Shown here one piece after another: positions 785 through 58,235 of a stretch of 64,000 nucleotides of DNA. A program made the translations under genes and the position numbers. How positions within the stretch are numbered: position 1 is the first letter of the stretch; every line of letters begins with the position of its first letter. Origin of the DNA: an uncultured Gammaproteobacteria bacterium (GTDB taxonomy: Bacteria; Cyanobacteriota; Vampirovibrionia; LMEP-6097); NCBI GenBank assembly GCA_964517685.1, contig CAZFCF010000003.1:47706-111705 (forward strand). The letters are read 5' to 3'. A model generated the notes under the pieces. It was not told where the DNA came from and made no database searches. It saw only the letters and a list, made by a program, of their open reading frames with translations.

Positions 785-824
785 GACTTAACTTGCAGAT
801 AACCTATTTATTTAAGAGCCTCTC

Positions 825-924
825 CGAAAAGCTCCCAGATGCTAGGCTTGCGAGTCCCCGAGGAGCCGGAGTTTACTTAGCGTAAATGAGGACGACGAGG
901 GGCGAGCGTAACAACGCAGATGGG
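825..924 (+). repeat. GC-rich ~100-bp repeat element, copy 1 (family B)
   Basis: Near-identical to the reverse complement of 7788-7878 (cgaaaagctcccagatgctaggcttgcgagtccccgagga...gaggggcgagcgtaacaacgcagatggg). GC-rich against an AT-rich background. Confidence 0.8.
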
Positions 925-1037
925 ACTTTGCGGATAGGCTCTAAGCTTATTAGCCTATGACTGTCTTGTAAATAAGCCATATGGCCTATCTCTCCTCTCA
1001 AAGTAGCTCGGGTATAACTTTTATAGGGTTTTAATAT

Positions 1038-1352
1038 ATGGAAATTAAGAGACTAAGTTTACAAGAAATAGAGATGGCCAAGCTAAATGGCACAAAGATT
1101 AACGCTGCGTTGGAAACTGCTAGTGGCAACAAAGAAATTGACCTTCAAGATTCTGCTGTTGCTATTGATAGCCAAAGTACAGAACAGTTTGAAGCCGTTA
1201 AAAAAACTGTTGCTGATGCCGTAAGACCTGGTGGTCCAGAATTAATTGAGAAAATAAAAGCTAGACTTGGTGATTTCGATAAACTTGATTCTAAAACCCT
1301 TGCAAATTCCATGTTTGAAGATGGATTCGATGAGAATTTCTTCAACAATTAA
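1038..1352 (+). CDS. flgM: putative anti-sigma-28 factor FlgM
   Basis: 104 aa. The C-terminal IEKIKARLGDFDKLDSKTLANSM resembles the conserved sigma-28-binding helix of FlgM (compare Salmonella [25 protein letters not shown]). Immediately followed by an flgN-like gene, as in flgMN operons. Confidence 0.45.
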   Translation: MEIKRLSLQEIEMAKLNGTKINAALETASGNKEIDLQDSAVAIDSQSTEQFEAVKKTVADAVRPGGPELIEKIKARLGDFDKLDSKTLANSMFEDGFDENFFNN

Positions 1353-1362
1353 AAGGTTATAA

Positions 1363-1833
1363 ATGAAATATTTAGTTGAATTACTTGAAAAAGAAACAGA
1401 CATTTATAGTAGCTATTTAGAACTTGCTGCACGTAAGAAAAAAGCTTTGATCGATAATGATATTGATAGATTAGATGCAATTACATCTGAAGAGAAGGCT
1501 TTATCAACTAAAATTTTGGCTTTAGAAGCCGCTCGTACTGAGTATCTTAGAGAAGAAGGTTTCTCTGGATCAATAACTCTAAATGAATTATTACCGAAAC
1601 TATCTCAGGATGATAGAACTCAAATTGAAGGTATCTCGGAAAATTTAAGAGTAGTTCTAACTAACTGTAAAAAATTCAATGACAATAACATAGCTCTTTT
1701 GAAACAATCATCAAGCTATATAAATCATATGATCAAAGTTTTTTCTTCAAATTTAAGTGGAGGAACAGCAGCAACATATTCTAGAGGAACTAATAAGTTC
1801 AGTTCAGGACAAATAGCTGATATGCAAGCTTAA
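1363..1833 (+). CDS. flgN: putative flagellar export chaperone FlgN
   Basis: 156 aa helical protein (LLEKETDIYSSYLELAARKKKALIDNDIDRLDAITSEEKAL...). Size, heptad pattern and position right after flgM fit FlgN. Confidence 0.4.
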   Translation: MKYLVELLEKETDIYSSYLELAARKKKALIDNDIDRLDAITSEEKALSTKILALEAARTEYLREEGFSGSITLNELLPKLSQDDRTQIEGISENLRVVLTNCKKFNDNNIALLKQSSSYINHMIKVFSSNLSGGTAATYSRGTNKFSSGQIADMQA

Positions 1834-1844
1834 GGGTAGTAATA

Positions 1845-2705
1845 ATGACAATAGTTTTTTTAATTCTAGTTTCAGTTTGTATTTTCGGTGGATTTGCCAT
1901 GGAGGGCGGTCCGCTCTTTGCGATTATTTCAGTTTGGCAAGAGTACATAATTATTTTCGGTGGAAGTACAGCAATTTTCCTTGCCATGATGCCTCCTAAA
2001 ATTTTGCAACACATTCTTATGAATCTTGGACATCCATTCAAAGGTGACCAATATTCTAAAGAGACTTTTACTGAAGCTTTAAAGCTAATGTACGAATCTT
2101 TTATCAACCTGAAACGTAGTGGCTTATTGAGTTTGGAGAAAGATGTTTCTAATCCTGCTGAAAGCACAATTTTTTCTAAATATCCAACTTTTGTAGGTAA
2201 TCATCACGCTTTAGATTTCTATTGTGATTCATTAAAGCTGGTTATTAACTACAACTCAAAACCTGAAGATGTAGAGCAAGCTATGAATGCAGAACTTGAT
2301 GCTCATCATCATGAGGCTGCTTTAACACCAGGCGCTGTAAATAGAATTGCAGATGCGATGCCTGCTGTAGGTATTATTGCTGCGGTACTTGGGGTAATTA
2401 TTGCGATGGCTCATATTGATGGACCTCCAGCAGAATTAGGTCACAAGGTATCTGCCGCGCTAACAGGTACGATGTTAGGTATTCTTGCAGCATATGGTTA
2501 TTACCAACCTATTGCTCAGCATATAGAATATATTTGCCAAGATGAATCTCAGTATTTTCAATGTCTTAAAGAGGGAGTTATTTCTTATTTAAGCGGTGCA
2601 GAACCAATGGCTGCAGTTGAGATTGCACGTAGGACTATTAGTAGTTTTAATAGACCTTCAAGCCAAGAGCTTGAGGAAGCTTTACAAGGCATTAAACCTC
2701 GCTGA
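1845..2705 (+). CDS. motA: flagellar motor stator protein MotA
   Basis: 286 aa with strong collinear similarity to E. coli MotA (FGGFAMEGG...; LSLEKDVSNPAESTIFSKYP...; LTPGAVNRIADAMPAVGIIAAVLGVIIAM...PPAELG...GTMLGILAAYG...PSSQELEE). Confidence 0.8.
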   Translation: MTIVFLILVSVCIFGGFAMEGGPLFAIISVWQEYIIIFGGSTAIFLAMMPPKILQHILMNLGHPFKGDQYSKETFTEALKLMYESFINLKRSGLLSLEKDVSNPAESTIFSKYPTFVGNHHALDFYCDSLKLVINYNSKPEDVEQAMNAELDAHHHEAALTPGAVNRIADAMPAVGIIAAVLGVIIAMAHIDGPPAELGHKVSAALTGTMLGILAAYGYYQPIAQHIEYICQDESQYFQCLKEGVISYLSGAEPMAAVEIARRTISSFNRPSSQELEEALQGIKPR

Positions 2706-2848
2706 TTTTTGAGTATTTATTCAATCGTTCGAACCCGCTCAGTAAGTAGGACTATAAGGTAGTAAATTTTACCTTATAGTCCTACTTACCTTGCTGTGCG
2801 TCGCTTCGCTTTGCAAAGTTCTCACTTGCTTGAATAAATACTCAAAAA
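2706..2848. repeat. nested palindromic element / bidirectional terminator between convergent motA and mscS
   Basis: Outer 19-bp inverted repeat tttttgagtatttattcaa (2706-2724) / ttgaataaatactcaaaaa (2830-2848). Inside it is a near-perfect 19-bp stem, gtaagtaggactataaggt (2742-2760) / accttatagtcctacttac (2771-2789). Confidence 0.6.
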
Positions 2849-2864
2849 TCCATCTGAAAAGGAA

Positions 2865-3908
2865 TTACTTCTTATTAGAACTAACATTCACCGTCTGCAT
2901 CGGAATCGCAAAGTGGATTCCAGCTTTCTCAAAATCTTCTTTAATACGTAGATTTAAGAGATTCTGTTTAGCCATGTATTCATTGTAATCACCAGAAGGA
3001 TAATAGAAAATTGTTTCATACATTAAACTTGAGATTCCAATTTCTTTAAGAGCAACATAGTCAACGCGAAGTTCCTCGAACGATTTAAGAATGTCTTTGA
3101 TCATATCGGGTATCATGCGGCACTGAGCAGCATTAGTCTCATGACTCACATGGATTAACCAACTAACTCTTCGTTCTTTCATTTTTTTGAAGTTTTGAAC
3201 ACGACCACTAGTTAATTCTTTATTTGGTATAACGATCTCCTCTCCCTGCAAAGCTTGAATACGAGTGGATTTCAGACCTATTTTATTTACCGTTCCCATA
3301 TGGTCACCGCTAATAATAAAATCTCCAACTCTAAATGGCTTATCACTATAAATTGAAAATGCACTGAACATATCGCCGAGTAAATTTTGTACGGCTAAAG
3401 CGATAGCAATACCACCAATCCCTAAACTGGCTACAAGTGAATTGACATTGACTCCCCAATTCGAAAGTACGAGTAATATGGCGATGATCCAAAGAACCAT
3501 GTTGATTAGTAACTTAGCTCCGTAGATTAAGGTGTAATCAGTTTTATCGCGTTTGCGACTTTGAATAGAACTTTCTAAGAGATAGTAAATAGTGCCTTGC
3601 AAAGCAGAAATGATTTGAAAAATTACTAATGTAACAAAAATCAAATTTAGAAACTTATGAAAAGTGGGCTCTAAATGAAGACTTTCGGTTGCTAGATAGA
3701 AAGCTACAAGCACATAGAAATAAGTTGGAATACGTGTTAAAGACTTAACTACAACATTGTCAAATTTGGCATGGCTTTGTTCAGACCAAGCATGTATCTT
3801 GGCTATAAAATATTTTCTGAATAACCAAAAGGCACAGTTATAAGCTAGAAACAAGAATAGTGCTATTGCATAAGCTTCAACATCGTTGCCCCAGAATTCA
3901 GTTTCCAT
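2865..3908 (-). CDS. small-conductance mechanosensitive channel (MscS family)
   Basis: TM helices followed by GIGGIAIALAVQNLLGDMFSAFSIYSDKPFRVGDFIISGDHMGTVNKIGLKSTRIQ, the MscS pore/beta domain signature. The ORF track extends to 4064, but that would overlap the divergent panE start. An internal Met near 3908-3926 is the likelier start. Confidence 0.7.
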   Translation of the reverse strand: METEFWGNDVEAYAIALFLFLAYNCAFWLFRKYFIAKIHAWSEQSHAKFDNVVVKSLTRIPTYFYVLVAFYLATESLHLEPTFHKFLNLIFVTLVIFQIISALQGTIYYLLESSIQSRKRDKTDYTLIYGAKLLINMVLWIIAILLVLSNWGVNVNSLVASLGIGGIAIALAVQNLLGDMFSAFSIYSDKPFRVGDFIISGDHMGTVNKIGLKSTRIQALQGEEIVIPNKELTSGRVQNFKKMKERRVSWLIHVSHETNAAQCRMIPDMIKDILKSFEELRVDYVALKEIGISSLMYETIFYYPSGDYNEYMAKQNLLNLRIKEDFEKAGIHFAIPMQTVNVSSNKK

Positions 3909-3944
3909 CACTTCTAAGAATCTCATCCTATAATTATAAGGCAT

Positions 3945-4937
3945 ATGCATATAGTTATTTTTGGTATTGGCGCAATTGGAGGGTTCTACGGTATCACTCT
4001 TGCAAGGTATCTGAAAAACAATCCTAGAGAAGATTTCAAAATTAGTTTTATTGCTAGAGGGCAAACTTTTGAAAACTTAAAACATTTTGGAGCTAAATTA
4101 ATTTGTAAAAGAGACACTCTTGGTGAAATGCAAGAGTCTATTGTTGTAGAAAATAATTTTACTTTGGTAAAAAAATATCAAGAGTTAGAAATTAATCCAG
4201 ATGAATATACTTTGGTTTTGCTTTGTGTCAAATCCAAAGACACTATTGATGCTTGCAAAGATATAAAAACTAAACTTACTGATAATACTGCTGTGATCTC
4301 AGTGCAAAATGGAATTGAGAATGAAGAAAGAATTGCAGAAATTTTGGGAATCAAGCATGCAATTGGTTCTCTGACTACGATTGCTGCAGAAACTTTAGAG
4401 CCAGGGATCTATCTTCAGAAAGGTGGTTACGGATTTACTATTGGTGAATTGACAGAGAACATTGGTTATAAGTGGGCTGATAAAAAAAGAATAGATTATA
4501 TTTATAACTTTTTAAAAGAAGCCGGTTTGAGTATTTCACAAACTGAAAATATTAAAGAAGAGCTGTGGATTAAATTAGTTTGGAATGCAGCTTTTAATCC
4601 TATTAGTGTCCTGTATGAAAATACTGTTGGGCAACTACTTGCAGATCCTAAGAAAAAAGCACTTATTGAAGGAGTGATGTTTGAAGTTACTGAAGTGGCT
4701 GCCGCAGAAGGATATAAGTTGCCTGATGGTATAGAGCAGAAGCAAATTGGCAGGACTAGTAGTCCGATTTGGTATGACTTCAGAACTTCGATGTTACAAG
4801 ATTTTCAAAAAGGTAGAGAAATTGAGCTTGATGATTTATTGGGAGTCATTGTTCGCAAAGCCAAAGAGCATGATATCGATGTGCCAAATGCTGAAAAAGT
4901 TTTTAGTGAGCTTTCGGCCGTCATTGCGAGGAGTTAA
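3945..4937 (+). CDS. panE: 2-dehydropantoate 2-reductase (ketopantoate reductase, PanE/ApbA)
   Basis: N-terminal Rossmann motif MHIVIFGIGAIGGFYG. About 330 aa, with KPR-like central and C-terminal regions. The last residues (SAVIARS-stop) are encoded by the MITE at 4917-5019. Confidence 0.65.
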   Translation: MHIVIFGIGAIGGFYGITLARYLKNNPREDFKISFIARGQTFENLKHFGAKLICKRDTLGEMQESIVVENNFTLVKKYQELEINPDEYTLVLLCVKSKDTIDACKDIKTKLTDNTAVISVQNGIENEERIAEILGIKHAIGSLTTIAAETLEPGIYLQKGGYGFTIGELTENIGYKWADKKRIDYIYNFLKEAGLSISQTENIKEELWIKLVWNAAFNPISVLYENTVGQLLADPKKKALIEGVMFEVTEVAAAEGYKLPDGIEQKQIGRTSSPIWYDFRTSMLQDFQKGREIELDDLLGVIVRKAKEHDIDVPNAEKVFSELSAVIARS

Positions 4938-5019
4938 AAGCGACGAAGCAATCCAGTTTGCGCAGGGGGATTGCTTCGCTGGCCGTCACTGCGAGCGAAG
5001 CGCGGCAGTCGCAATGACG
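4917..5019. mobile_element. RPE-like palindromic MITE (family A), full-length copy
   Basis: gccgtcattgcgaggag...cgacgaagcaatcc...ggggattgcttcgct...cgcaatgacg. Terminal inverted repeat gtcattgcga/tcgcaatgac plus an internal inverted repeat gaagcaatcc/ggattgcttc. Family recurs at least 10 times in the window. Confidence 0.8.
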
Positions 5020-6603
5020 ATGTATACTAATAATGTGATTCCCAGGCTGCTTATACTTTTTGTTTTGTCCTTTTTGCTAAATACCACAGCATTTGCTGCG
5101 GTGCCAGAGGCTATAAAAACAGAACTTACAAAGATTTATCCTGAAGCTAAATTCAGATTTGATGATTTAATGCAAGTTAAAGATCGTTTGTGGCTAGTAT
5201 TTATACCTAAAGCTAAAGTTCAATATCCAGAGCCGCCTATTAACCTAGTTCTCAAAACAGAGAATGAAGATTTTCTGTTTAGTAATGGCTGGATTTATAC
5301 GCCTATAAAAGATCATACAATTAAAAGTTTAGATTTTTATCCAGAGGTTATACAAAAACAATTTATATTAGATCAAGTTTCTCAAACTTTTCTTATCCCA
5401 AAGAAATTTACTTTGCCACGTGATTTAGCAATGACAATTGGTAGATTGCCTTTAGAGTTATCTAATGTTGAGTTAGCTACAGATAGAGAACTTTTGTTTA
5501 AACAAAGACTTGAAGCTGATAAACAAAAGGTCATGAATTTTGCAGTTTTCTCTAATAAAACTCATAGTCTTGATTTATTAGAATTTAATGACCAAGCCTT
5601 CCTTAAGCATGGAACTCAATCAGCAAATGGTTCTAGCATAGATGAAATAAAAACCAAATATCTTATAAAAGAAAAATTTACTTTTATTTCAAAAATAAAA
5701 AAATATAAGAATGATATCTATTTCTCAGATTTTCATAAAAGTAAAATCTATAAACTAATACAACCTAAACAAATAATGCCGGATGCAACTAAGCCTTTTG
5801 AGAAGTTTGAGGATAAGAAGGAATATGGTTTAGAAGAGTATTTAGATCTCAAAAATTTTGAGATTAAGGCATCTTTAGTGGATTTTGCTTTTAGTAATGA
5901 TGATTCTGTATTTTATGTACTCACAGGATCTCCAAGTCAATTATTGGTTTTTAGCACTAGAACCAAAAAATTAATGAAGGATATGAAAATCCCGGCAGCC
6001 AGTGATGAGCTTACAGTCTTGTCGCGTAATGCTTCTGAACCTGATAAAGTTTTTTTTAGATCGAGATCTGCAAATAAAGTTTTTGTATTAAACTCTTTTG
6101 ACTACAGCATTTCAAGTGAAATTGATTTGAATAAACTTGATAGTAAGTTTCTTTTTATCCCACACTCTTTTGCGATTTATCCAGATCAAATACTTTTAGG
6201 ATGTGAGGCAATTAGTAAGAGCTACAAAGATGGTTTAAAAAGTGGCGGTAAAATTTTGGTCCTTGATGTAATCACTGGTGGCTTAAATAAAATTATCGAT
6301 TTGGATTTTACTCCTTATAAGTTACTCAAGAACGATGATAAAACCGCTTATATAGTTGGTTATAGTCCTGATACTTATTATTCTAAATTAGCAAAATTAG
6401 ATACTCAAAGTTATGAATTAAAGGTGAATGATTTAGGAGCAGATTTCCCTGCGGTTAAATCTTTGGTTATTAGCAATACTGGAGATTTTATTTTGGTACC
6501 AAGCTCTCAAACCCAATTACTGGGAATAATTGATACTGCTAGTTTTTCTTTAGTCAAGAAATTAAGCATTGAAAAGCCAATCAACCTGATTATTGATTTG
6601 TAA
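5014..6603 (+). CDS. secreted hypothetical protein (signal peptide MTMYTNNVIPRLLILFVLSFLLNTTAFAA)
   Basis: Long ORF. The track start at 4747 reads through panE's 3' end and the MITE. The first plausible starts are the two ATGs at 5014/5020, the first lying inside the MITE terminal repeat. A hydrophobic signal peptide follows. No recognisable domains. Confidence 0.5.
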   Translation: MTMYTNNVIPRLLILFVLSFLLNTTAFAAVPEAIKTELTKIYPEAKFRFDDLMQVKDRLWLVFIPKAKVQYPEPPINLVLKTENEDFLFSNGWIYTPIKDHTIKSLDFYPEVIQKQFILDQVSQTFLIPKKFTLPRDLAMTIGRLPLELSNVELATDRELLFKQRLEADKQKVMNFAVFSNKTHSLDLLEFNDQAFLKHGTQSANGSSIDEIKTKYLIKEKFTFISKIKKYKNDIYFSDFHKSKIYKLIQPKQIMPDATKPFEKFEDKKEYGLEEYLDLKNFEIKASLVDFAFSNDDSVFYVLTGSPSQLLVFSTRTKKLMKDMKIPAASDELTVLSRNASEPDKVFFRSRSANKVFVLNSFDYSISSEIDLNKLDSKFLFIPHSFAIYPDQILLGCEAISKSYKDGLKSGGKILVLDVITGGLNKIIDLDFTPYKLLKNDDKTAYIVGYSPDTYYSKLAKLDTQSYELKVNDLGADFPAVKSLVISNTGDFILVPSSQTQLLGIIDTASFSLVKKLSIEKPINLIIDL

Positions 6604-6606
6604 GCT

Positions 6607-7761
6607 ATGTCGGCAAAAAGCATTTATATTCATTTACCTTTTTGTAAGACTAAATGTCCTTATTGTGATTTTGCATCTTTTGCTGATCATAATAAAGATA
6701 GACAAGAAGAGTACATAGAAGCCTTGGTGACTGAAATCAATTTTAGAATGGCTGGCTATAAACCAGAATCTAATAACATCCAAACAATTTTTTTTGGTGG
6801 TGGCACTCCAAGTGTGCATTCTGCTGAGCAACTACAGCGTATTTTAAATACTCTAAAAAAATATTTTAGCTTTGCTCATGATATAGAAGTTACTCTGGAA
6901 GCTAATCCTGGCACTATTGATAAATCCAAGCTTGCAGAATTTAAATCTATTGGAATTAATCGTATTAGTATTGGTGCTCAAACTTTTGATCCTGATCTGC
7001 TAATTAAGCTTGGACGAGGACATAGTATTGATGATACTTTGCAAGTTATCGCTAATATTCAAGCAGTGAATTTTAATTCTTGGAGCTTGGATTTAATATA
7101 TGGTCTTCCCGGCCAAACTCTTGAATCATGGTCAAAGACTTTAGTTCAGGCATTAAGTTTTGATCCACCTCATATCTCTGCTTATGCTTTGAGTATTGAA
7201 GAAAAAACACCTTATGGTGAAATATATAAAAACTCATATCATCCAGATTTGCCAGTCGAAGATTCTATTGTGGAGATGTATCAATTAACTAATGATTTAT
7301 TAGGTAAGCAAGGTATCAATCGTTATGAAATTAGTAATTGGTCTAAACCTGGTCATGAAGCGAAACACAATTTGACCTATTGGTATGCTGATGAATATTA
7401 TGCCTTTGGTTTAAGCGCGCATGGTTACATTGATTCAACTAGATATAAAAATACACGTGATCTTCCGAAGTATATAGAGGCTTTTGCTGAAAAAAATCTT
7501 GAAAGCAATTTTGGATATAATTTTGCTTTAGCTGAACCAATTCTTATACCAGAATCAGAAAAGTTAGAAGAAAAAGTTTTATTGGGATTACGTTTGACTG
7601 AGGGTCTTGAAATTACAGAAGCAATTTCTAAGTTTATTAATAAAAAAAATCTTAGTAAAAATATCGATGCTGGTTTTTTATTTTTTGACAATGATCGTTT
7701 AAAATTAACTGATAGGGCTTTGATGGTAAGTAACACTATTATTTCTGATTTACTCGTGTAG
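6607..7761 (+). CDS. hemW: radical SAM heme chaperone HemW (HemN-like, oxygen-independent coproporphyrinogen oxidase family)
   Basis: SIYIHLPFCKTKCPYCDF is the CxxxCxxC radical-SAM motif. About 384 aa, with a HemN_C-like tail. Confidence 0.75.
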   Translation: MSAKSIYIHLPFCKTKCPYCDFASFADHNKDRQEEYIEALVTEINFRMAGYKPESNNIQTIFFGGGTPSVHSAEQLQRILNTLKKYFSFAHDIEVTLEANPGTIDKSKLAEFKSIGINRISIGAQTFDPDLLIKLGRGHSIDDTLQVIANIQAVNFNSWSLDLIYGLPGQTLESWSKTLVQALSFDPPHISAYALSIEEKTPYGEIYKNSYHPDLPVEDSIVEMYQLTNDLLGKQGINRYEISNWSKPGHEAKHNLTYWYADEYYAFGLSAHGYIDSTRYKNTRDLPKYIEAFAEKNLESNFGYNFALAEPILIPESEKLEEKVLLGLRLTEGLEITEAISKFINKKNLSKNIDAGFLFFDNDRLKLTDRALMVSNTIISDLLV

Positions 7762-7787
7762 ATCCTGTTCGAAAAATCCCATCTGCG

Positions 7788-7878
7788 TTGTTACGCTCGC
7801 CCCTCGGAGATCCTCATTGACAATCAGTCAACTCCGGTTCCTCGGGGACTCGCAAGCCTAGCATCTGGGAGCTTTTCG
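7788..7878 (-). repeat. GC-rich ~100-bp repeat element, copy 2 (family B, inverted relative to copy 1)
   Basis: Its reverse complement matches 825-924 apart from an internal segment where both copies keep a hairpin through compensatory changes (tttac..gtaaa versus ttgac..gtcaa). Flanked by an extra inverted repeat cttttcgaatag / ctattcgaaaag (7870-7904). Confidence 0.8.
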
Positions 7879-7940
7879 AATAGGATCTTAGTAATTAAGA
7901 ATCTATTCGAAAAGTACAGTATTATTGAGTTATACAGCGT

Positions 7941-15249: not shown

Positions 15250-15281
15250 ATACTGCCAATCTTAGCAAATTAGAGTAAGTG

Positions 15282-15386
15282 CCGTCATTGCGAGCCACGA
15301 AGTGGCGTGGCAATCCAGTCAGCGCACGGGGATTGCTTCGTCAGGCTTTGCCTTCCTCGCAATGACACGCTACGCTCGCAATGACG
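15282..15386. mobile_element. RPE-like MITE (family A) copy, intergenic with duplicated right end
   Basis: ccgtcattgcgagccacgaagtggcgtggcaatcc...ggggattgcttcgtcagg...cctcgcaatgacacgctacgctcgcaatgacgg. Confidence 0.75.
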
Positions 15387-15412
15387 GTATTTATTTTCGA
15401 ATAATAAAAAAT

Positions 15413-17913: not shown

Positions 17914-18036
17914 CTGGAGAAAATTTTTCATACACTCTTTCACTCCCTATTGCTTGACGCCCCTCCCAGCTCCGCCGCTCGGAGGCGACGCAAACAGGGC
18001 GACCCTTAGTTCAAGAGTGTATTAAAAATTTTCTAG
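17914..18036. repeat. MITE-like element (family C): 24-bp inverted repeats flanking a GC-rich core
   Basis: ctggagaaaatttttcatacactctt (17914-17939) is the reverse complement of aagagtgtattaaaaattttctag (18013-18036). Between them lies a 72-bp GC-rich core with a ctccg..cggag hairpin. Directly preceded by a short family-A-like hairpin, tcgtcatcctgagccctgaaagggcgtgaggatc (17864-17896). Confidence 0.6.
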
Positions 18037-19847: not shown

Positions 19848-19864
19848 AATGTTTTCATTCCTGC

Positions 19865-19899
19865 TCAGGGGGATTGCTTCGCTACGCTCGCAATGACGG
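19865..19899. mobile_element. RPE-like MITE half-element forming the 3' end of the ADH gene
   Basis: cagggggattgcttcgctacgctcgcaatgacggc. Read on the minus strand it encodes the last residues VIASVAKQSP and the stop of the 19865-20902 CDS. Confidence 0.7.
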
Positions 19900-20902
19900 C
19901 TTTTAAAATTTTCCCTTCAATCATTTCTTGCAAAGCAATTTCCAAATCTTCTAATTTAAATTCTGCTGTAATTAAATCACTTATATCAATTGTGCTATTT
20001 GCAAGTAATTCAAGAGCTTGCTGAATATATTGTGGACGATGATGAAAAGTACCAATCATTCTGATCTCTTGATAATGAATTTGATAAGTGTCAAATACAA
20101 CTTTTGAATCTTTTTTACAACCACCAAAGAAATTTATTAAACCACCAGGTCTCACCATCTTCATGCAATCTAACCAAGCTTCAGGTTTGCCCACGGCTTC
20201 AAAAACCACATCAGCACCAAAGCCATTGATGGCTTTTATTTTATTTGTGAATTCTGGATCTTTGTAATCAAAAATAAAATCAGCACCATTGGCTTTAGCA
20301 AGTTTTGTTTTCAATGCAGAATTGCCAATCGCAATTATAGTGATATTCTTGCGTAACTTTCTACAAAGCTTAATAAAAGTTAAACCGATAGCACCAATGC
20401 CATAGACGCAAACCATGTCATTGTCTTTGATTCCTGATTTCTCAAAGCCATGTAAAGTTACTGCTAAAGTCTGCACAACGGCTGCAGTTTTAAAATCAAG
20501 TGATTCAGGAATTTTGTATAAGTTATTTTCTACAATGCTTTCAGGAATTTTTATTAGTTCGGCAAATGAGCCATTGAGAAATTCTAGATTTTCACAAAGT
20601 TCAAATTCTTCTTTGCGGCAAAAAAAACATTTATAACAAGGAGCAGTATTTGCGGCGGTAACTTTATCTCCGATAGTGAATTTTGGATTTTTAGTTTCTT
20701 TAACTATTCCTGAAAATTCATAACCGAAACTTGAGGGAATGCTTTTGATTAATTTAGGATGACCCTGAAGGTAAGTTTTAGTATCAGTACCTCCAGTTAG
20801 TGCAGCTTTTATTTCCACCAAAACCTCACCCTTACTTATGTTAGGGTCTTGAATATTTTCAATCCTTAAATCTTTTGGTCCGTAGAATAATATAGCTTTC
20901 AT
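19865..20902 (-). CDS. zinc-dependent alcohol dehydrogenase / medium-chain dehydrogenase-reductase (threonine/sorbitol dehydrogenase-like)
   Basis: MKAILFYGPKDLRIENIQDPNISKGEVLVEIKAALTGGTD...; structural-zinc Cys cluster CYKCFFCRKEEFELC; GxGxxG-like VYGIGAIGL. The C-terminal 10 aa are MITE-derived. Confidence 0.7.
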   Translation of the reverse strand: MKAILFYGPKDLRIENIQDPNISKGEVLVEIKAALTGGTDTKTYLQGHPKLIKSIPSSFGYEFSGIVKETKNPKFTIGDKVTAANTAPCYKCFFCRKEEFELCENLEFLNGSFAELIKIPESIVENNLYKIPESLDFKTAAVVQTLAVTLHGFEKSGIKDNDMVCVYGIGAIGLTFIKLCRKLRKNITIIAIGNSALKTKLAKANGADFIFDYKDPEFTNKIKAINGFGADVVFEAVGKPEAWLDCMKMVRPGGLINFFGGCKKDSKVVFDTYQIHYQEIRMIGTFHHRPQYIQQALELLANSTIDISDLITAEFKLEDLEIALQEMIEGKILKAVIASVAKQSP

Positions 20903-23133: not shown

Positions 23134-23143
23134 TTTAATAGCG

Positions 23144-23231
23144 GCGTCATTGCGAGGAACGTAGTGACGAAGCAATCCCCCTGCGCAAATCAGATTGCCA
23201 CGTCGGGCTTTGCCCTCCTCGCAATGACGAG
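23144..23231. mobile_element. RPE-like MITE (family A) copy, intergenic
   Basis: gcgtcattgcgaggaacgtagtgacgaagcaatccccctgcgcaaatcagattgccacgtcgggctttgccctcctcgcaatgacg. Confidence 0.75.
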
Positions 23232-23279
23232 CGGTACGCAACCCATCTCAGGTGGTATGATTTTACTTGAAATTTCAGA

Positions 23280-30396: not shown

Positions 30397-31815
30397 TCAA
30401 AGCGATACCATCTTAATTTGTAGCCTTTTCAAAGCCTCATCTGGATTAAGTTCTCGGCGTATAACTTTTAGGTAAGCATCTTTAATTTCACGCTTATACA
30501 TTTGGCTGAAAGGCAATTGTGGAAAGTATTTGGCATTAGGACTTTTAGCCAGATCAATAAATATTTCTATGTATTGATTTGGATGTTTCTGTATAAAGCT
30601 TTCGCTGTGTGTGTTTAATGGTGTAAATTTTTGTTGTGCTAAAGCTAGATACTCTAGATTTTCTTGTTTGTGTAACCATTTAATGAACTCTGCTGCTTGT
30701 CGAGCGTGTTTCGCGCCTTTGGGAATTGCAAGCGCATCTACCGTTACATAAGTAGCTTTGGGTACTCTGCCTGGAAACGCTCTCACAGAGATATTTAGCT
30801 GCGGTGAGTAAATTTTGGCAAGATTCTTTTCCCAGACCCCATTATTCTCAAGTGCAATTTTGCCAGAGTAAAAAGGATTGTCCGGACTTTGGTAAGCATG
30901 AAAGCCTTCAGTATATGAAGCGAGTTTTTGTGGGTCGATTTTGCTTGCGAAGTTTTCTACTGCCCAGTTCCAGGCTTCGAGGTTTTCGGGGGAGTAGGCG
31001 GTGATTTGCCACTCGTCATTGCGAGGAACGGAGTGACGAAGCAATCCATTTCGCGCAGGGGGATTGCCGCGCCCACTATGTGGGCTCGCAATGACGTTTG
31101 ATTTCACTCCCCACTCCCCACCAAACACAACCGGCAAGAAGCTTCCAGCCCAAGGAGGCCAGCTTGGTAAGTAAGCAATTTCTCTGCCATCACCATGGGC
31201 ATTTATGTGATCGAAGATTTTTACTATATCTTCTAAGCTTGAAGGTTCTGCTAAATGATATTTATCGAGAATATTTTTATTGATGTGAAGGGCTTCGCAA
31301 GTGGGCATCAAAGGCATCGCAAATTGTGAGCCTTGTAAATTCAACATCCTTATATATACCGGAATAAATCTATCCAAATATTCCTGATCAAAAAAATTAT
31401 CAAGTGGTTCTAGAGCGTTGCGTAAAGCAAAGTCACTGACCATATCTCCATCGAGGTGAACTAGATCTGGAGGGACTTTACCTACTATCGAAAGCAAAAT
31501 CTTTTTCTTGGGCATAGAAATGCTAACCATTTTTACTTTGAAATCGTGATCTTCTGAGTTGAATTTTTTTACTAATTCTTCTAAAGGTTTCTTTTCAACG
31601 CCGCTCCAATACTGCCAGAAGGTAATTGTTGTTTTAATGGCGCCGGGGGATTGTTTCGCTTCCACCTTCGCTAATGCTTCGGTGGACAAGCCGCTCGCAA
31701 TGACGGTGTTTGCAATGAAAGACTTCTTATAAAACTCAAAAACAAATACGCCCAGAATCACTAAGAAAAAAATCCATAAAACTATAAAAACTTTTTTTTG
31801 TGGGCTGAGGTTCAT
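30397..31815 (-). CDS. extracellular solute-binding protein (ABC transporter SBP family 1-like) carrying two in-frame MITE insertions
   Basis: N-terminal membrane anchor/signal, then an SBP_bac_1-like body. The two peptide stretches NTVIASGLSTEALAKVEAKQSPGA and SNVIASPHSGRGNPPARNGLLRHSVPRNDEW are direct translations of family-A MITEs at 31644-31706 and 31014-31096. The frame stays open. Confidence 0.55.
   Translation of the reverse strand: MNLSPQKKVFIVLWIFFLVILGVFVFEFYKKSFIANTVIASGLSTEALAKVEAKQSPGAIKTTITFWQYWSGVEKKPLEELVKKFNSEDHDFKVKMVSISMPKKKILLSIVGKVPPDLVHLDGDMVSDFALRNALEPLDNFFDQEYLDRFIPVYIRMLNLQGSQFAMPLMPTCEALHINKNILDKYHLAEPSSLEDIVKIFDHINAHGDGREIAYLPSWPPWAGSFLPVVFGGEWGVKSNVIASPHSGRGNPPARNGLLRHSVPRNDEWQITAYSPENLEAWNWAVENFASKIDPQKLASYTEGFHAYQSPDNPFYSGKIALENNGVWEKNLAKIYSPQLNISVRAFPGRVPKATYVTVDALAIPKGAKHARQAAEFIKWLHKQENLEYLALAQQKFTPLNTHSESFIQKHPNQYIEIFIDLAKSPNAKYFPQLPFSQMYKREIKDAYLKVIRRELNPDEALKRLQIKMVSL
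31014..31096. mobile_element. RPE-like MITE (family A), full copy inserted in-frame inside a CDS
   Basis: cgtcattgcgaggaacggagtgacgaagcaatccatttcgcgcagggggattgccgcgcccactatgtgggctcgcaatgacg. Confidence 0.8.
31644..31706. mobile_element. RPE-like MITE (family A), half element inserted in-frame inside the same CDS
   Basis: cgggggattgtttcgcttccaccttcgctaatgcttcggtggacaagccgctcgcaatgacgg. Confidence 0.75.
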
Positions 31816-31903: not shown

Positions 31904-33199
31904 GTGATTCAAGAAAGAAGAGTTGTAATTACCGGTATCGGTCCTGTGACCTCTGTAGGTATCGGTTTAGAAGAATTTTGGGCAGCCTTGCTTGCTGGTA
32001 AAAGCGGTATTAGTATGCTCGACAATATAAATGAGTATGAAGGTTTCACGCCGCCAGTAAAATTTGGCGGACAAATCAAAAACTTTGATGTGGCAACTTA
32101 CTTTCCTGGAGATCCTCGTGAAATTCGTAGTCTACAAAAAGACATGGATAAGGTCAGCCAATTTGCGATGGTTGCAGCGAAATATGCAATTGAAAATTCT
32201 GGAATTAATTTTGATAAATTAGAAGAGTACGGTTCAGATCGCACTCAGGTAGCGACTTTCATAGGTACTGGTATCGGTGGTATCAAAACTACTTGTGATG
32301 ATATGCAAACTCTAGTTACCCGTGGCATTAAAGCTCTTGGTTTGCGTTCTATTATAAGGCTCATGCCCAATGCGGCATCAGGTCATGTTGCAATCAAATA
32401 TGGTTTGCAAGGTAGAGCTAAGTCAGATGCAACTGCGTGCGCATCGGGTTTGGATAGTTTAATGGATGCTTTCTACTATATAAAGAATGGTCTTGCTGAT
32501 GTTATGGTGACTGGCGGTACTGAAGCGTGTTTGAACACACTTGCTATTTCTTCTTTCTATAATATGACTGCACTTTCTCGTAGAGAGACTGCTCCAGAAG
32601 AAGCGAGCTGCCCGTTTGATAAACGTCGTGATGGTTTTGTGATGTCTGAAGGCGCAGTTGTTTTCACTATAGAAGAATTATCCTTTGCTAAGAAACGTGG
32701 TGCAAAGATATATGCTGAGCTTATTGGCGTAGGTGCTAGTTGTGATGCCTACCATATTACTGCTCCATCTGAAGATGGTAGTGGTGGATCTCGTGCTATT
32801 GAAGCGGCTTTGAAGTGTGCAGGCATGAGTAATGAGCGTGAGAAGATTAATTACATCCACGCACACGGTACTAGCACTCCATTGAATGATGCGCGTGAGA
32901 CTCTTGCAATCAAAAAAGTTTTTGGTGAACATGCTAAAAAGCTTGCAGTATCTTCGACTAAGTCTATGACTGGTCACTTGATTGGTGCTGCCGGTCCTGC
33001 TGGGCTTGCGGTTTGTGCAATGGCTTGTAAGGATGGCAAAGTGCCTCCTACTATCAACTATAAGGAAGCAGACCCTGCTTGTGATTTGGATTATGTGCCA
33101 AATACAGCGCGCTCAATGAATGTGGACTATGCGATGGTCCAAGCTCTTGGCTTTGGTGGACATAATACTGTGGCGATTGTCAAGAAATTTACGGAGTAA
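31904..33199 (+). CDS. fabF: 3-oxoacyl-[ACP] synthase II (beta-ketoacyl-ACP synthase, FabF/FabB family)
   Basis: RRVVITGIGPVTSVG; active-site Cys context ATACASG; HAHGTSTPLND; GHLIGAAG; C-terminal GFGGHN. 431 aa. Confidence 0.85.
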   Translation: MIQERRVVITGIGPVTSVGIGLEEFWAALLAGKSGISMLDNINEYEGFTPPVKFGGQIKNFDVATYFPGDPREIRSLQKDMDKVSQFAMVAAKYAIENSGINFDKLEEYGSDRTQVATFIGTGIGGIKTTCDDMQTLVTRGIKALGLRSIIRLMPNAASGHVAIKYGLQGRAKSDATACASGLDSLMDAFYYIKNGLADVMVTGGTEACLNTLAISSFYNMTALSRRETAPEEASCPFDKRRDGFVMSEGAVVFTIEELSFAKKRGAKIYAELIGVGASCDAYHITAPSEDGSGGSRAIEAALKCAGMSNEREKINYIHAHGTSTPLNDARETLAIKKVFGEHAKKLAVSSTKSMTGHLIGAAGPAGLAVCAMACKDGKVPPTINYKEADPACDLDYVPNTARSMNVDYAMVQALGFGGHNTVAIVKKFTE

Positions 33200-33204
33200 C
33201 AAAT

Positions 33205-33316
33205 GCCGTTATTGCGAGGAGCGAAGCAAGCCTGTCCAGAGCGTAGCGTGGGATGACGATCCAGTCTTCAAATAACTGGATCCTGACGCCTTCTGCGAAG
33301 GCTCAGGATGACGCGG
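33205..33316. mobile_element. composite RPE-like MITE (family A left half fused to a gtcatcctgagc-type palindrome)
   Basis: gccgttattgcgaggagcgaagcaagcc...gggatgacgatccagtc...ggatcctgacgccttctgcgaaggctcaggatgacgcgg. Confidence 0.7.
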
Positions 33317-33318
33317 CA

Positions 33319-33912
33319 TTAATTCTGCAAACAAAATCTGATGAGACTCTCAGCTTCATCTGGAATCTCTTGCTCTCTTGCAGCATTCAGCTTCTTATCA
33401 ATCTCTAGATAACTTAATCCAAGATTACTCAAAATAGAACTTACATCATTATGTGATTTATAAGAATGATTTTCATCGCCCTCTTTATTATCCTTGCTCA
33501 CGATAATATTTTTAAATTTATTTTTCAGCTCAAGAATTATTCTCTGCGCAGTTTTATTGCCAACACCTTGAGCTTCTTCAATTAGTTTTACATCTCCACG
33601 AATCACTGCAGAAATAAATTGCTCTACTTCAAAATAAGACAGAATATTGACCGCTGATTTAGGTCCAATTCCTGACACTTTTATCAACAACTGAAACAGT
33701 TCTTTCTCTGTTTTATTGAGGAATCCAAAAAGCCTAATTCCTTCTTCGTTGTTTATGGCCACAACGTGTATCTTGTAATCCTCTCCCTGATTGATTTTGA
33801 TTAAAGTAGTTTTGGGTATTTCAACTAAATATCCAATATTGTTTACGTCAATGATTGCAGTATTACAATTTAAATTCTTCTCAATTATCTTTCCTTTGAA
33901 ATATGCAAACAT
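33319..33912 (-). CDS. ruvA: Holliday junction DNA helicase subunit RuvA
   Basis: MFAYFKGKI...GYLVEIP; GIGPKSA helix-hairpin-helix motifs; about 198 aa from the internal Met. The track ORF starts 15 codons earlier. Confidence 0.75.
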   Translation of the reverse strand: MFAYFKGKIIEKNLNCNTAIIDVNNIGYLVEIPKTTLIKINQGEDYKIHVVAINNEEGIRLFGFLNKTEKELFQLLIKVSGIGPKSAVNILSYFEVEQFISAVIRGDVKLIEEAQGVGNKTAQRIILELKNKFKNIIVSKDNKEGDENHSYKSHNDVSSILSNLGLSYLEIDKKLNAAREQEIPDEAESLIRFCLQN

Positions 33913-38990: not shown

Positions 38991-39938
38991 CTAACCTTTA
39001 ATAAGCTGTAGTGCTATTTGTGGAGTTGCATTCGCTTGAGAGAGCATCGCTGCGGCAGTTTGCTGCAGGATTTGGTTCTTGACTAAGATACTACTTTCTT
39101 GAGCAACGTCAACATCTTGGATACGCGATCTAGATGCTTCGGCGTTTTCTTTAGCAATGTCCATGTAGTCAGTTTTTGACTCCAGTGCATTTTGAGTAGC
39201 TCCTAGGTAAGATCTCATTCTAGAGATATTGTCGATAAGAGTATCAATATCACCAACCGAAGCGGCAACGTTAGTTGTGTGAGTAGCATAGTTAAGTGAA
39301 TTAACATTTGCACCACTAATTTGCAATCTATCTAAGGCAAAACCCGTAGTAGTGCCTTCAATGATGTGACCGTAATCAGTTGTACCGCCATCTGCCACTT
39401 CACTGATATCGATGTCGATACCATTGTTAGCTGCATACTCAGAACGTAGACTCAAAACAGTGGTCTGACTTGCATCAGCACCGGTTTGTAGAGTTAAGTC
39501 TGCAGATGAGGAATTGTTACTGCTAAGCAAGTTGATACCATTGAATTTTGTTGATCCAGAAATATCATTGATAACTTTAACTCGCTCGTTAATCTCTCTT
39601 TGTAGAGCGTCTTTCTCGTTAGTGCCGTTAGTTCCGTTGACACCTTGTACAACAAGTTCTCTAATTCTCTGTAAATTTTCTTGTATAACTTGCAAACCAC
39701 CTTCTGATGTTTGAATGAGTGAAATACCATCAGCGGCATTTTGTTTAGCTTTGTCAAGACCGCGAATAGTTGTTGTAAGCTTGTTTGCGATACTTAAGCC
39801 GGCTGCATCATCTGCTGCTCTGTTGATTCTGTAACCTGTAGATAAATGTTCGATATTTCTCTCAAGTCCCATAGTATTCATTCTTAATGCCCTTTGGGCG
39901 AAGATACTTTGTGTGTTTGTGTTTACTACTAATGCCAT
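38991..39938 (-). CDS. fliC: flagellin (copy 1)
   Basis: N-terminus MALVVNTNTQSIFAQRALRMNTMGLERNIEHLSTGYRINRAADDAAGLSIANKL and C-terminus QNQILQQTAAAMLSQANATPQIALQLI are canonical flagellin D0/D1 segments. Confidence 0.9.
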   Translation of the reverse strand: MALVVNTNTQSIFAQRALRMNTMGLERNIEHLSTGYRINRAADDAAGLSIANKLTTTIRGLDKAKQNAADGISLIQTSEGGLQVIQENLQRIRELVVQGVNGTNGTNEKDALQREINERVKVINDISGSTKFNGINLLSSNNSSSADLTLQTGADASQTTVLSLRSEYAANNGIDIDISEVADGGTTDYGHIIEGTTTGFALDRLQISGANVNSLNYATHTTNVAASVGDIDTLIDNISRMRSYLGATQNALESKTDYMDIAKENAEASRSRIQDVDVAQESSILVKNQILQQTAAAMLSQANATPQIALQLIKG

Positions 39939-40149
39939 AATTGTTTCCTGCTTAAAATATCGGAACTTTGCAGGCTAGCACAGTTAACCATTGAGACTAT
40001 TTGTTGGAGCCTAACCTCAGGAAATCTAGGCACAGTGAGCTAATTTAGTGTGCAGGACTAATCTAAAAAGACTATAGGCATGAGAATTTCATTGAAATCT
40101 CGATTGTTTAATCAGATTTTAATTTGATTTATTTACTATAACTCTAGCT

Positions 40150-40761
40150 ATGGTAAACATTTCGCCAACAGCCAAATCAAATATATCTAGGTTTCAATCT
40201 GCAGAGGCCCCGGCGGCATCTAATATTAGCTTAGCTGCTGCTAATAATCATGGAGCTAGAGTTAGCAATTTAATCGGTGGTGGTGCTGCAACTGGCTCTA
40301 CAGGCGGTTTAAACAATCCATCAGGTTCTTCACAAACCAAAAGCTCCAAGAGTTTTGCTCAACTCATTGATATGAGTCATTATACTGATACTTACAAAGA
40401 TTATACGGACAAGTCAAAGGAAGCAGAAAATGTTTTAAAAACATATGAATCTAAAGTAGCTACTGGTGATGCTCCTGATAATCCATCTCAATTTCATTCT
40501 TCATATTCAGAAATTCTTTCATTAAATACTTTAGAAGAGTTTTATAAACAAGAAACATTATTCTGGAAATCAGAACAGAGTTTTACTAGTGCCAATCCTG
40601 ATAAATTAACTAAGGGTAGAGCAGACTCCTATAGAAATCTCCAAGATTTAGAAAGCCGTTATGAAGAAGCTTTGATTGCAGGCAATACTATTAAAGCTGC
40701 AGATCTAAAAGGTGATATTAACGCAGCGAAACACAATCTCCAAGCGTCACAGACGGCTTAA
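40150..40761 (+). CDS. hypothetical protein within the flagellin locus (203 aa)
   Basis: ORF only. Ser/Gly/Ala-rich N-terminus, helical C-terminus. The stop overlaps the flagellin copy 2 stop by 4 bp (convergent). Confidence 0.35.
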   Translation: MVNISPTAKSNISRFQSAEAPAASNISLAAANNHGARVSNLIGGGAATGSTGGLNNPSGSSQTKSSKSFAQLIDMSHYTDTYKDYTDKSKEAENVLKTYESKVATGDAPDNPSQFHSSYSEILSLNTLEEFYKQETLFWKSEQSFTSANPDKLTKGRADSYRNLQDLESRYEEALIAGNTIKAADLKGDINAAKHNLQASQTA

Positions 40762-41693
40762 TTTGGTAATAGCGACAAGACTATTTGTGGAGTAGTATTT
40801 GCTTGAGTAAGCATGGCGGCAGCGGTTTGTTGCAAAATTTGGTTCTTCACTAGAATACTACTTTCACGGGCGACATCTACATCTTTAATTCTAGATCTAG
40901 AACTTTCAGAATTTTCACGAGCAATGTCAATAAAATTTACTTTTGATTCGAGAGCATTTTGTGAGGCACCAAGATACGATCTCATTCTGGAAATATTGTC
41001 TATCATTGCATCTAAATCATTAGCTGAAACAGCAACATTCGTTGTATGTGTAGCATAATTAAGCGAATTAACATTTGAACCATTTATGTATAAACGATCT
41101 AGAGCAAAGCCAATTGAAGTGCCTTCAATTAAGTGACCATAGTCAGTTGTACCACCATCTGCAACTTCGCTTATATCAATGTCAATCCCGATCTGGGATT
41201 GAACTCCAGATTCAAATTTAATTTCTGAATTTTGTCCATTTACAGTTCCAGTTTGTAAGATTCGATCTGTAGTCCCTGCAAGCAAACTAATTCCATTAAA
41301 TTGAGTTGCTTGAGATATATCAGAAATAATTTTAATCCTTTCGTTTATTTCTCTTTGTAGAGCACCTTTTTCGTTAGAGCTATAAGTGCCGCTTGTACCT
41401 TGGATAACCAATTCCCTGATTCTTTGTAAGTTTTCTTGGATTACTTCTAAGCCACCCTCAGCTGTCTGTAGCATTGAAACACCGTCGCCAGCGTTCTGCA
41501 TAGCTTTCTCTAAGCCTTTTAATTCAGTAGTTATTTTATTACTGATACTTAAACCTGCCGCATCATCGGCAGCTCTATTTATTCTAAAACCTGTAGACAA
41601 ATGTTCGATATTTGCCTTTAAACCATCGGTGTTAACTCTCAGTGCTCTTTGAGCAAAAAGACTTTGAGTATTGGTGTTGATTGATAATCCCAC
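40758..41693 (-). CDS. fliC: flagellin (copy 2, divergent paralog)
   Basis: MGLSINTNTQSLFAQRALRVNTDGLKANIEHLSTGFRINRAADDAAGLSISNKI...LTQANTTPQIVLSLL. Conserved termini with a diverged central domain. Confidence 0.9.
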   Translation of the reverse strand: MGLSINTNTQSLFAQRALRVNTDGLKANIEHLSTGFRINRAADDAAGLSISNKITTELKGLEKAMQNAGDGVSMLQTAEGGLEVIQENLQRIRELVIQGTSGTYSSNEKGALQREINERIKIISDISQATQFNGISLLAGTTDRILQTGTVNGQNSEIKFESGVQSQIGIDIDISEVADGGTTDYGHLIEGTSIGFALDRLYINGSNVNSLNYATHTTNVAVSANDLDAMIDNISRMRSYLGASQNALESKVNFIDIARENSESSRSRIKDVDVARESSILVKNQILQQTAAAMLTQANTTPQIVLSLLPN

Positions 41694-41823
41694 TCATCTA
41701 CTATTCACCCGAGGGACTAAGATCTAAATCAGCCCCCAGACTGATTTTCATGGTTAAATGCAGTTAATTAGTCTCAAAGTCCTAGATTAAAAGGACTGTT
41801 TTATTTATTTTGAAAATTCTAAT

Positions 41824-41856
41824 ACAAAAAATAGAGAGCCCCGTAAGGGGCTCTCT
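41824..41856 (-). terminator. rho-independent terminator for flagellin copy 3
   Basis: agagagccccgtaaggggctctct is a perfect 10-bp stem, followed on the minus strand by a T-run. Confidence 0.75.
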
Positions 41857-41936
41857 AAGTGGGGTGGGGAGGGAATCGTCAGTTTCTACCCTTTTTATCA
41901 ACTATGCTAGGCATAGTTAAAATCTATAAGTCGAAT

Positions 41937-46112: not shown

Positions 46113-46183
46113 TTTCCAAGGATGATAGTATCATCTGATACTATCACGTGATACTATACATAGGTTCGACTTAAGGCAAATTC

Positions 46184-46255
46184 TGTCATTCAGAGCACGC
46201 GGAAGCGTGCGTAGGAATCCAGCGCGGGGAGATTGCTTCGCTTCGCTCGCAATGA
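46184..46255. mobile_element. RPE-like MITE (family A variant) copy, intergenic
   Basis: ctgtcattcagagcacgcggaagcgtgcgtaggaatccagcgcggggagattgcttcgcttcgctcgcaatgac. Confidence 0.7.
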
Positions 46256-46261
46256 CAAAAC

Positions 46262-49907: not shown

Positions 49908-49945
49908 TGTCATTGTGAGGAGTGAAACGACGAAGCAATCCCCCC
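49908..49945. mobile_element. RPE-like MITE (family A) left half-element
   Basis: tgtcattgtgaggagtgaaacgacgaagcaatccccc. Confidence 0.65.
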
Positions 49946-58149: not shown

Positions 58150-58235
58150 GGGTAGGTGTCCGAGTGGCTAAAGGAGGCAGACTGTAAATCTGCTCACGTA
58201 AGTGTTCGCTGGTTCGAACCCAGCCCTACCCACCA
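58150..58235 (+). tRNA. tRNA-Tyr (anticodon GTA), long variable arm
   Basis: gggtaggtgtccgagtggctaaaggaggcagactgtaaatctgc...ggttcgaacccagccctacccacca. Acceptor stem GGGTAGG/CCTACCC, anticodon loop ctGTAaa, T-loop GGTTCGAAC, encoded CCA. Collinear with E. coli tRNA-Tyr. Confidence 0.85.

Follow-up and report, generated by a model that had tools for sequence, protein, structure and literature searches.

The 64,000-nt stretch of DNA analysed here (hereafter the window; contig CAZFCF010000003.1, positions 47,706 to 111,705) carries two GC-rich repeats in inverted orientation, one between tsaB and flgM (copy 1) and the other between hemW and the gene of a large TamB-like protein (copy 2). These repeats are very probably copies of a non-autonomous palindromic mobile element of about 127 bp, which resembles ERIC sequences and represents the TA-duplicating type of MITE (miniature inverted-repeat transposable element). 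The family is previously undescribed, and the kind of bacterial repeat to which it belongs is well known. The assignment is based on four of the properties by which MITEs are recognized: small size and non-coding nature, terminal inverted repeats, a target duplication visible in the comparison of filled and empty sites, and multiple dispersed copies.

A repeat search returned inverted arms at 813–892/7811–7890 (80 nt, 89%) and 896–943/7759–7806 (48 nt, 90%), and the window holds exactly two occurrences each of a 33-mer and a 29-mer from this repeat, none being expected (100 shuffles). The inverted repeat described in an earlier sequence-only reading of this DNA is therefore real, and it is longer than was stated there, spanning 815–941 on the plus strand and 7761–7888 on the minus strand; the sequences which that reading gave for the middle of the two copies (gtttacttagcgtaaat and gttgactgattgtcaat) are correct. 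The copies are 85.7% identical, with longest identical runs of 40 and 30 nt, and they are the sole matches to a covariance model of the family in the 64 kb when the filters are switched off. Their GC content is 0.51–0.55 vs 0.368 for the window, neither contains an open reading frame of 60 aa or more, and the termini are inverted (AGAGCC.../...GGCTCT), the entire element being an imperfect palindrome. The features of the two copies are as follows:

813–814, plus strand: TA target-site duplication left of copy 1 (the empty site of relative L034 has one TA)
815–941, plus strand: copy 1, palindromic element of about 127 nt (AGAGCC...GGCTC), 151.6 bits with the family model
827–847, plus strand: conserved left core AAAAGCTCCCAGATGCTAGGC, which pairs with the right core across a GA/GA internal loop (20-copy alignment)
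871–887, plus strand: apical hairpin of copy 1, GTTTAC-TTAGC-GTAAAT (sequence and fold)
909–928, plus strand: conserved right core TAACAACGCAGATGGGACTT, which contains an asymmetric bulge and aligns with positions ~86–119 of the ERIC profile
942–943, plus strand: TA target-site duplication right of copy 1 (comparison with the L034 empty site)
7759–7760, minus strand: duplicated TA at the right end of copy 2, which also supplies the T and the A of the hemW stop codon TAG (7759–7761)
7761–7888, minus strand: copy 2, canonical strand on the minus strand, between hemW and the TamB/YhdP-like gene, 149.8 bits
7816–7832, minus strand: apical hairpin of copy 2, GTTGAC-TGATT-GTCAAT (sequence and fold)
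7889–7890, minus strand: duplicated TA at the left end of copy 2 (sequence and spacer alignment)
7897–7917, no strand assigned: fragment beside copy 2, AAGAATCTATTCGAAAAGTAC, resembling the element terminus AAGATCCTATTCGAAAAGC

The copies had been placed in 5' intergenic regions, before flgM and the TamB-like gene; a position just 3' of tsaB and hemW describes them better. Most of the gene names proposed for this region stand, namely FlgM (PF04316 on orthologues), FlgN (PF05130) and, by NCBIfam/Pfam, MotA, MscS, PanE and HemW; the name TamB is less secure, as the large downstream protein matches YhdP/DUF748-type models weakly.

Evidence for insertion comes from relatives that lack one or the other copy. 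The order of hemW and the large TamB/YhdP-like gene is conserved in relatives, with the following spacers:

Window: 179 nt from hemW to the TamB-like gene, element present
L009 (HemW 87% identity): 90 nt, element absent
L010 (HemW 68% identity): 77 nt, element absent
L011–L013 (HemW about 60% identity): 5–6 nt, element absent

The empty site of L009 reads GTC-TA-AACC and has only one TA, located within the stop codon; its counterpart in the window is TA-[element]-TA, and the hemW stop codon of the window (TAG) consists of the duplicated TA and the terminal G of the element. The site of copy 1 provides a cleaner filled/empty case than that of copy 2. The tsaB–flgM spacer is empty in L034 (80% FlgM identity), where it reads CCTATTCA-TA-AGTCAGC, and filled in the window, where it reads CCTATTTATT-TA-[AGAGCC...GGCTC]-TA-AGCTTATT, while L031 (86% FlgM identity) holds an orthologous copy 1 that differs by three substitutions (one in a bulge, one in the loop and a C to U change giving a G.U pair). 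Since the empty sites of both copies have a single TA, both copies are insertions with duplication of a TA target. Just downstream of the insertion point of copy 1 lies a nearly invariant block of ~90 nt (~951–1037), immediately upstream of flgM in the window, L031 and L034; flgM itself has diverged, and the block is probably the flgM promoter or leader.

Each copy folds end to end as one imperfect hairpin (copy 1, −58.5 kcal/mol, z −4.4; copy 2, −61.7 kcal/mol, z −6.5), of which the 5-bp stem singled out in the sequence-only reading is the tip only. The compensated pair reported in that apical stem is correct and is one of three fully compensated pairs that distinguish the copies (alignment columns 6/128, GC to TA; 12/122, CG to TA; 62/72, TA to GC); there is also one change from G-C to G.U, and the other differences fall mainly in loops and bulges. 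Covariation was counted on a MAFFT alignment of 20 distinct copies that was made independently of the covariance model. Standard pairs occupy 96.2% of the paired cells, vs 86.7% in column shuffles and 27–44% when the pairing partners are slid along the alignment. Both partners have changed in 22 of the 42 pairs, vs 10.1 ± 1.8 in column shuffles (none of 500 reached 22) and 5–10 with slid partners, and the number of double-changed cells is 71, vs 19 and 6–12, respectively. The same compensatory trend is already visible in an alignment of three copies, and the copies retain an asymmetric GA/GA internal loop as well as a UAACAA bulge.

The proposal that the hairpin is preserved by compensatory changes is thus borne out far above chance by the covariance analysis of additional copies, which had been suggested as a check. 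The accompanying argument, that selection acts on structure and that the repeat is not a decaying one, is upheld in so far as covariation of this kind is not that of a passively decaying duplicate; its opposition between a selected structure and a plain MITE falls away, since the element is of the MITE type and also has a conserved hairpin.

Further copies were recovered outside the window. A scan of representative genomes with the right-hand core gave five copies in two uncultured metagenome-assembled genomes (MAGs), some of them chimeric (the same termini around other GC-rich hairpin modules) and some without the left end. A gapped-pattern scan of metagenomes gave 17 loci, and an exact 20-mer scan of metagenomes gave no matches. 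In total, 21 full-length copies (20 distinct) score 83–152 bits with a covariance model built from three copies, and partial and chimeric copies occur besides. The full-length copies measure 126–130 nt and occupy more than 20 loci; the GC content of the copy-bearing loci is 36–58%, and the family is present in many uncultured genomes that differ in composition. The family model found no copy in ~53 kb from more distant relatives, BLAST of the element against plasmids gave no match, and a literature search for its motifs returned coincidental primer matches only. Seven 16-mer matches in viral contigs were discarded as chance, none being matched by the family model.

The position of all copies is intergenic. 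An overlap of 3–6 nt with the stop codon of a neighbour is seen in many of them, and some overlap both of two convergent neighbours; they lie between convergent, divergent and co-directional gene pairs, and the neighbouring genes are unrelated. Among co-directional neighbours, four independent copies are in the canonical orientation vs two in the reverse. Contigs L032 and L033 begin within the repeat, as expected of a multi-copy element, and several contigs end inside it. The two window copies appear to come from different sublineages of the family and not from a local duplication. The copy of L008 (1392–1522) is 80–85% identical to the window copies, the element being 85% identical in the comparison with window positions 7758–7890; this likeness, despite HemW proteins that are only 51% identical, suggests horizontal spread or a strong constraint on the element.

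Fragments of the element occur beside complete copies. The one at 7897–7917, just beyond the left end of copy 2, may be a relic of an older insertion to judge from its sequence; since a diverged counterpart is present in the empty site of L009, the fragment is probably older than copy 2. In L031, an exact duplicate of the right-end segment (~1115–1137) lies upstream of a diverged copy at 986–1103. Such terminus fragments may be relics or may reflect a preference for insertion beside old copies.

The host is probably a bacterium of the Vampirovibrionia (Melainabacteria), as judged from protein similarity: the nearest named relatives of the enolase (76–82%) and HemW (57%) of the window are from Melainabacteria, Vampirovibrionia and Caenarcaniphilales MAGs. 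These relatives, together with the flagellar genes of the window (flgM, flgN, and motA), point to a probably flagellated, non-photosynthetic relative of cyanobacteria. The MAGs which contain L004–L008, and with them the element, are labelled Gammaproteobacteria, a label not supported by HemW distances, as the HemW of one of them is 50–53% identical both to the window lineage and to Melainabacteria-labelled proteins. A claim of spread across phyla was dropped on account of this equidistance and of the unverified label.

Several observations weigh against the assignment to mobile TA-duplicating elements. Neither a transposase nor a full-length insertion sequence (IS) with matching termini, nor any additional terminus of the element, was found in the 273 kb of retrieved DNA, so that mobilisation in trans is inferred. 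The filled/empty comparisons number two, only about 8–9 of 20 copies have an intact TA on each side, and the duplication could be 2–4 bp long (TA, TAA, or TAAG). The invariance of two motifs, GCTCCCAGATGC and CGCAGATGGGA, is partly an artefact because they formed the search pattern; within the left core, GCTCCCAGATGC was fixed in this way, and the flanking AAAAG and TAGGC are conserved free of that constraint. In addition, the subterminal outer stem varies yet stays paired, and the interior is more conserved, a pattern that would be unusual if the termini were a double-stranded binding site for a transposase and that could mean that a folded single strand (RNA or single-stranded DNA, ssDNA) is relevant. 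Any effect of the element on mRNA is conjecture.

Among other explanations, the one that fares best, though it is improbable, holds that the family consists of small RNAs (sRNAs), leaders or processing-signal motifs that depend for their function on the conserved hairpin and its internal loops and whose copies spread through their usefulness, mobility being secondary. The 22 covarying pairs and the conserved asymmetric loops and bulge would be expected of a structured RNA, the orthologous copies of the window and L031 differ only at a bulge, a loop and a G.U-forming site, and sRNAs derived from MITEs are known in Coxiella (PMC5896051). In 20 of 21 copies the canonical strand also gives a better fold than the complementary one; much of this advantage comes from shared G.U pairs and loops, and the strand bias is weak, with G.U in 16 alignment columns vs A.C in 11. 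Rfam gave no match at the element, either in a scan of the window at gathering thresholds or in a scan of 700–1100 at E ≤ 5, and simple consensus scans, limited to sigma-70 for promoters, detected neither a sigma-70-like promoter nor an intrinsic terminator at the two window copies; a reading of the hairpins as intrinsic terminators was rejected for the lack of a T-run after either of them. In place of a conserved genomic context there is presence or absence at orthologous sites and unrelated neighbours elsewhere, with both orientations relative to transcription, and the TA duplication and the empty sites indicate insertion. The suggestion of a small RNA, taken as a stand-alone sRNA gene, is thus not sustained, as promoter, terminator, Rfam match and conserved synteny are all lacking, and the Rfam scan proposed along with it returned nothing at the element. 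The intergenic context at stop codons, combined with these negative results, fits a TA-targeting element that survives where it is harmless rather than a dedicated RNA gene.

Slightly less probable still is the idea that compensation is a by-product of mutation, one arm of the quasi-palindrome being corrected by template switching from the other, and not the outcome of selection. Such templated correction is an established mechanism of mutation, and many of the double changes are transversions (e.g., GC to TA) with no wobble intermediate. Copying from arm to arm should, on the other hand, erase asymmetry, and the asymmetric loops, the bulge and G.U pairs persist across 20 copies, which argues against simple template copying.

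Very improbable, in turn, is a hairpin element of the REP/REPIN or IS200/IS605-derived (PATE) kind, read as ssDNA by a Y1/HUH transposase (RAYT/TnpA), in which compensation would keep a DNA hairpin. Such an element would account for pairing kept along the whole length while the subterminal stem is free to vary in sequence, for the conserved internal loops and for the lack of a DDE-type partner IS in the retrieved DNA, and REPIN hairpins are known to be maintained (PMC3116915). Both filled sites, however, show the TA duplication, which is not produced by IS200/IS605 or REP elements; the repeat forms one hairpin of 127 nt rather than a REP of 20–40 bp or a doublet of REPs, its sequence shows neither a GTAG nor a CGTC head, and no RAYT/TnpA gene was noticed among the flanking genes, which were not systematically searched.

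The sequence-only reading further suggested that the inverted copies could mediate inversion of the segment from flgM to hemW. That they act as a recombination substrate which flips these 6.8 kb, as a switch or a polymorphism, is hardly credible: the copies are indeed inverted and 6.8 kb apart, with identical runs (40 and 30 nt) just above the minimal length for RecA-dependent exchange, but they are only 85.7% identical, arose by independent insertions and show the same junctions on all contigs recovered for the same proteins. The groups tsaB-flgM-flgN-motA-mscS-panE and hemW-TamB-like keep their order and orientation in L031 (with copy 1 only), L034 (without copy 1) and L009–L013 (without copy 2), so that both junctions, being common to relatives with one copy or none, are ancestral. 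No alternative junction was seen among the recovered contigs and relatives, which are assembled sequences and not reads, so that rare isomers could escape detection.

The TA-duplicating element finds its closest counterpart in ERIC, for which descriptive criteria were taken from reviews and ten real copies were used in homology tests. ERIC (also IRU or RU-1) measures ~127 bp, has inverted termini and TA at both ends, duplicates TA, is known from Enterobacteriaceae and Vibrionaceae, and forms long stem-loop transcripts together with neighbouring genes, with orientation-dependent RNase E effects on mRNA stability (PMC2229807; PMC2759123; PMC3184786; PMC10969869). The element described here shares the length of ~127 bp, the single long stem-loop, the short inverted termini, the TA ends and TA duplication, the intergenic and probably co-transcribed sites at gene ends in either orientation, the lack of a known transposase, and the occurrence of variants with altered internal parts. 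There is also a weak collinear similarity (a GAGyTTAC-loop-GTAArTGA apex, GGGyGAGC, and CAACGCAsATG..ACTT). The termini differ (AGAGCC... here, TATAC... in ERIC), and the host is neither enterobacterial nor a vibrio. Tests of sequence homology gave the following results:

Pairwise vs ERIC, dinucleotide-shuffle null: copy 1 z 5.7 (0/500), copy 2 z 3.6, L008 z 2.2, in one orientation only
Pairwise vs ERIC, hairpin-preserving null: copy 1 z 6.0 (0/300), copy 2 z 2.8, L008 z 3.1
ERIC profile, full Forward scoring, copy 1: 13.6–14 bits vs ≤2.7 in 100–200 shuffles of copy 1
ERIC profile, full Forward scoring, other copies: 0.3–12 bits, in most cases higher than shuffles of the same copy, and solely in the canonical orientation
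ERIC covariance model, 261 kb: the only matches at E ≤ 10 are four family members (19–22 bits, E 0.01–0.06), which align from one end to the other and in register
ERIC covariance model on the window, filters off: copies 1 and 2 at 11.6 bits (E about 1.3), which does not exceed the scores of short AT-rich hairpins
Family profile vs ERIC copies (reciprocal): borderline, best 7.7 bits

Full Forward scoring was used because nhmmer with the ERIC profile gave no match, for which its seed filter was held responsible; the ERIC alignments printed for copies 1 and 2, L008 and L004 all involve the same profile region (GAGCG..CAACGCAGATG..ACTT). The element works like ERIC, with which it agrees in every architectural criterion. 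Whether it also belongs to ERIC by descent of its sequence stands at roughly even odds on these comparisons, and filing it under that name was abandoned because copies 1 and 2 are indistinguishable from background hairpins under the ERIC covariance model. A bolder view, unlikely but less so than the alternatives above, is that the family constitutes a deep branch of an ERIC superfamily outside Gammaproteobacteria, in Vampirovibrionia-like and other uncultured bacteria, which spreads between distant hosts and whose functional unit is a folded single strand with conserved asymmetric loops; under that view the strand would be an RNA module read by host RNases or an ssDNA intermediate of transposition.

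Other known families share parts of this design. Correia/NEMIS of Neisseria and RUP of Streptococcus pneumoniae are likewise non-coding (100–160 bp) and intergenic, with terminal inverted repeats, TA ends and TA duplication, and give transcribed hairpins that RNases can process (PMC2229807; PMC10969869). Correia differs by terminal inverted repeats of 24 bp and an IHF site, a distinction made by description and not by sequence, and RUP, also compared by description, has an identified partner of the IS630 type whereas none was found here. QMITE2 of Coxiella burnetii is a small, very stable hairpin MITE situated mainly in 3' untranslated and intergenic regions, where it overlaps gene ends by a few bases and serves as a source of sRNAs (PMC5896051). 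It measures 150–190 bp, has direct repeats of 7–11 bp and carries a GTAG REP targeted by IS1111, whereas the present element lacks a tag of this kind and has a TA duplication of 2 bp. Nezha and other cyanobacterial MITEs come from a phylum related to the probable host, are known to be mobile from filled and empty sites and have stable predicted structures (PMC3184786). By description, Nezha differs in its length (130–170 bp) and in terminal inverted repeats common to ISNpu3, the element studied here having no known partner IS.

The window contains further repeats, and in this lineage other palindromic families occupy the same spacers. A second GC-rich palindromic family (GTCATTGCGAGG...GGATTGC...CTCGCAATGAC) is more abundant than the one described above, and its module occurs inside the termini of the studied element in L004, which indicates that the families form chimeras or nest. 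The copies of this second family and other repeats are listed below:

4935–5031, 15271–15389, 19851–19900, ~23140–23262 and ~31010–31177: second GC-rich palindrome family, window
31635–31714, 33199–33328, 46175–46259 and 49909–49944: second GC-rich palindrome family, window
L004 1075–1111 and the motA–mscS spacer of L031: second GC-rich palindrome family, elsewhere
2704–2850, between motA and mscS: nested palindrome, AT-rich and perfectly paired, in which an outer inverted repeat of 21 bp encloses a hairpin of 20 bp (−67 kcal/mol, z −11)
17916–18036: third GC-rich palindrome of ~120 nt with ends AATACACTCTT.../...AAGAGTGTAT, which scores 14.8 bits with the family model merely as a hairpin
38995–42886: three long direct repeats with units of about 1.2–1.8 kb, the first and third 99–100% identical and the middle one about 71%
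58150–58232: tRNA whose 3' end lies within an exact 42-nt direct repeat (58222–58263 and 58313–58354) with a GC-rich hairpin-like insert between the repeats

The AT-rich palindrome at 2704–2850 is absent from the same spacer of the 86% relative (L031/L032), which holds a GC-rich copy of the second family instead, and is another insertion polymorphism. The repeats at 38995–42886 are probably recently duplicated genes, and the region 58150–58354 has the appearance of a small insertion, or else of an att-like duplication, at the 3' end of the tRNA.

Taken as a TA-targeting MITE, the element inserts at TA, which it duplicates, and lands in intergenic DNA, in very many cases at a stop codon or next to one. 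Its own ends restore the stop codon of the neighbour, as in the TAG of hemW; in the window, one copy lies in the junction between hemW and the TamB-like gene, which measures 5–6 nt in relatives, and the other in that between tsaB and flgM. The element would be moved in trans by a transposase. The integrity of the hairpin would be selected during propagation and possibly in place too. A co-transcribed element is predicted to form a very stable stem-loop in the mRNA and could alter its processing or stability, as reported for ERIC.

No major concept is altered by these findings. They explain the GC-rich islands, and probably some of the contig breaks, found in the AT-rich genomes of an uncultured lineage about which little is known, and should keep such elements from being annotated as sRNA genes or inversion switches. 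The family also offers an unusually clean example of a mobile element that covaries over its full length like a structured RNA and has conserved internal loops, and can help to address in which form MITE hairpins come under selection, be it RNA, ssDNA or protein-binding DNA. If the weak link to ERIC is real, that classic family extends far beyond enteric bacteria, and if the family is indeed a deep branch, the ERIC type would be an ancient, widely shared structured mobile module and not an enterobacterial peculiarity.

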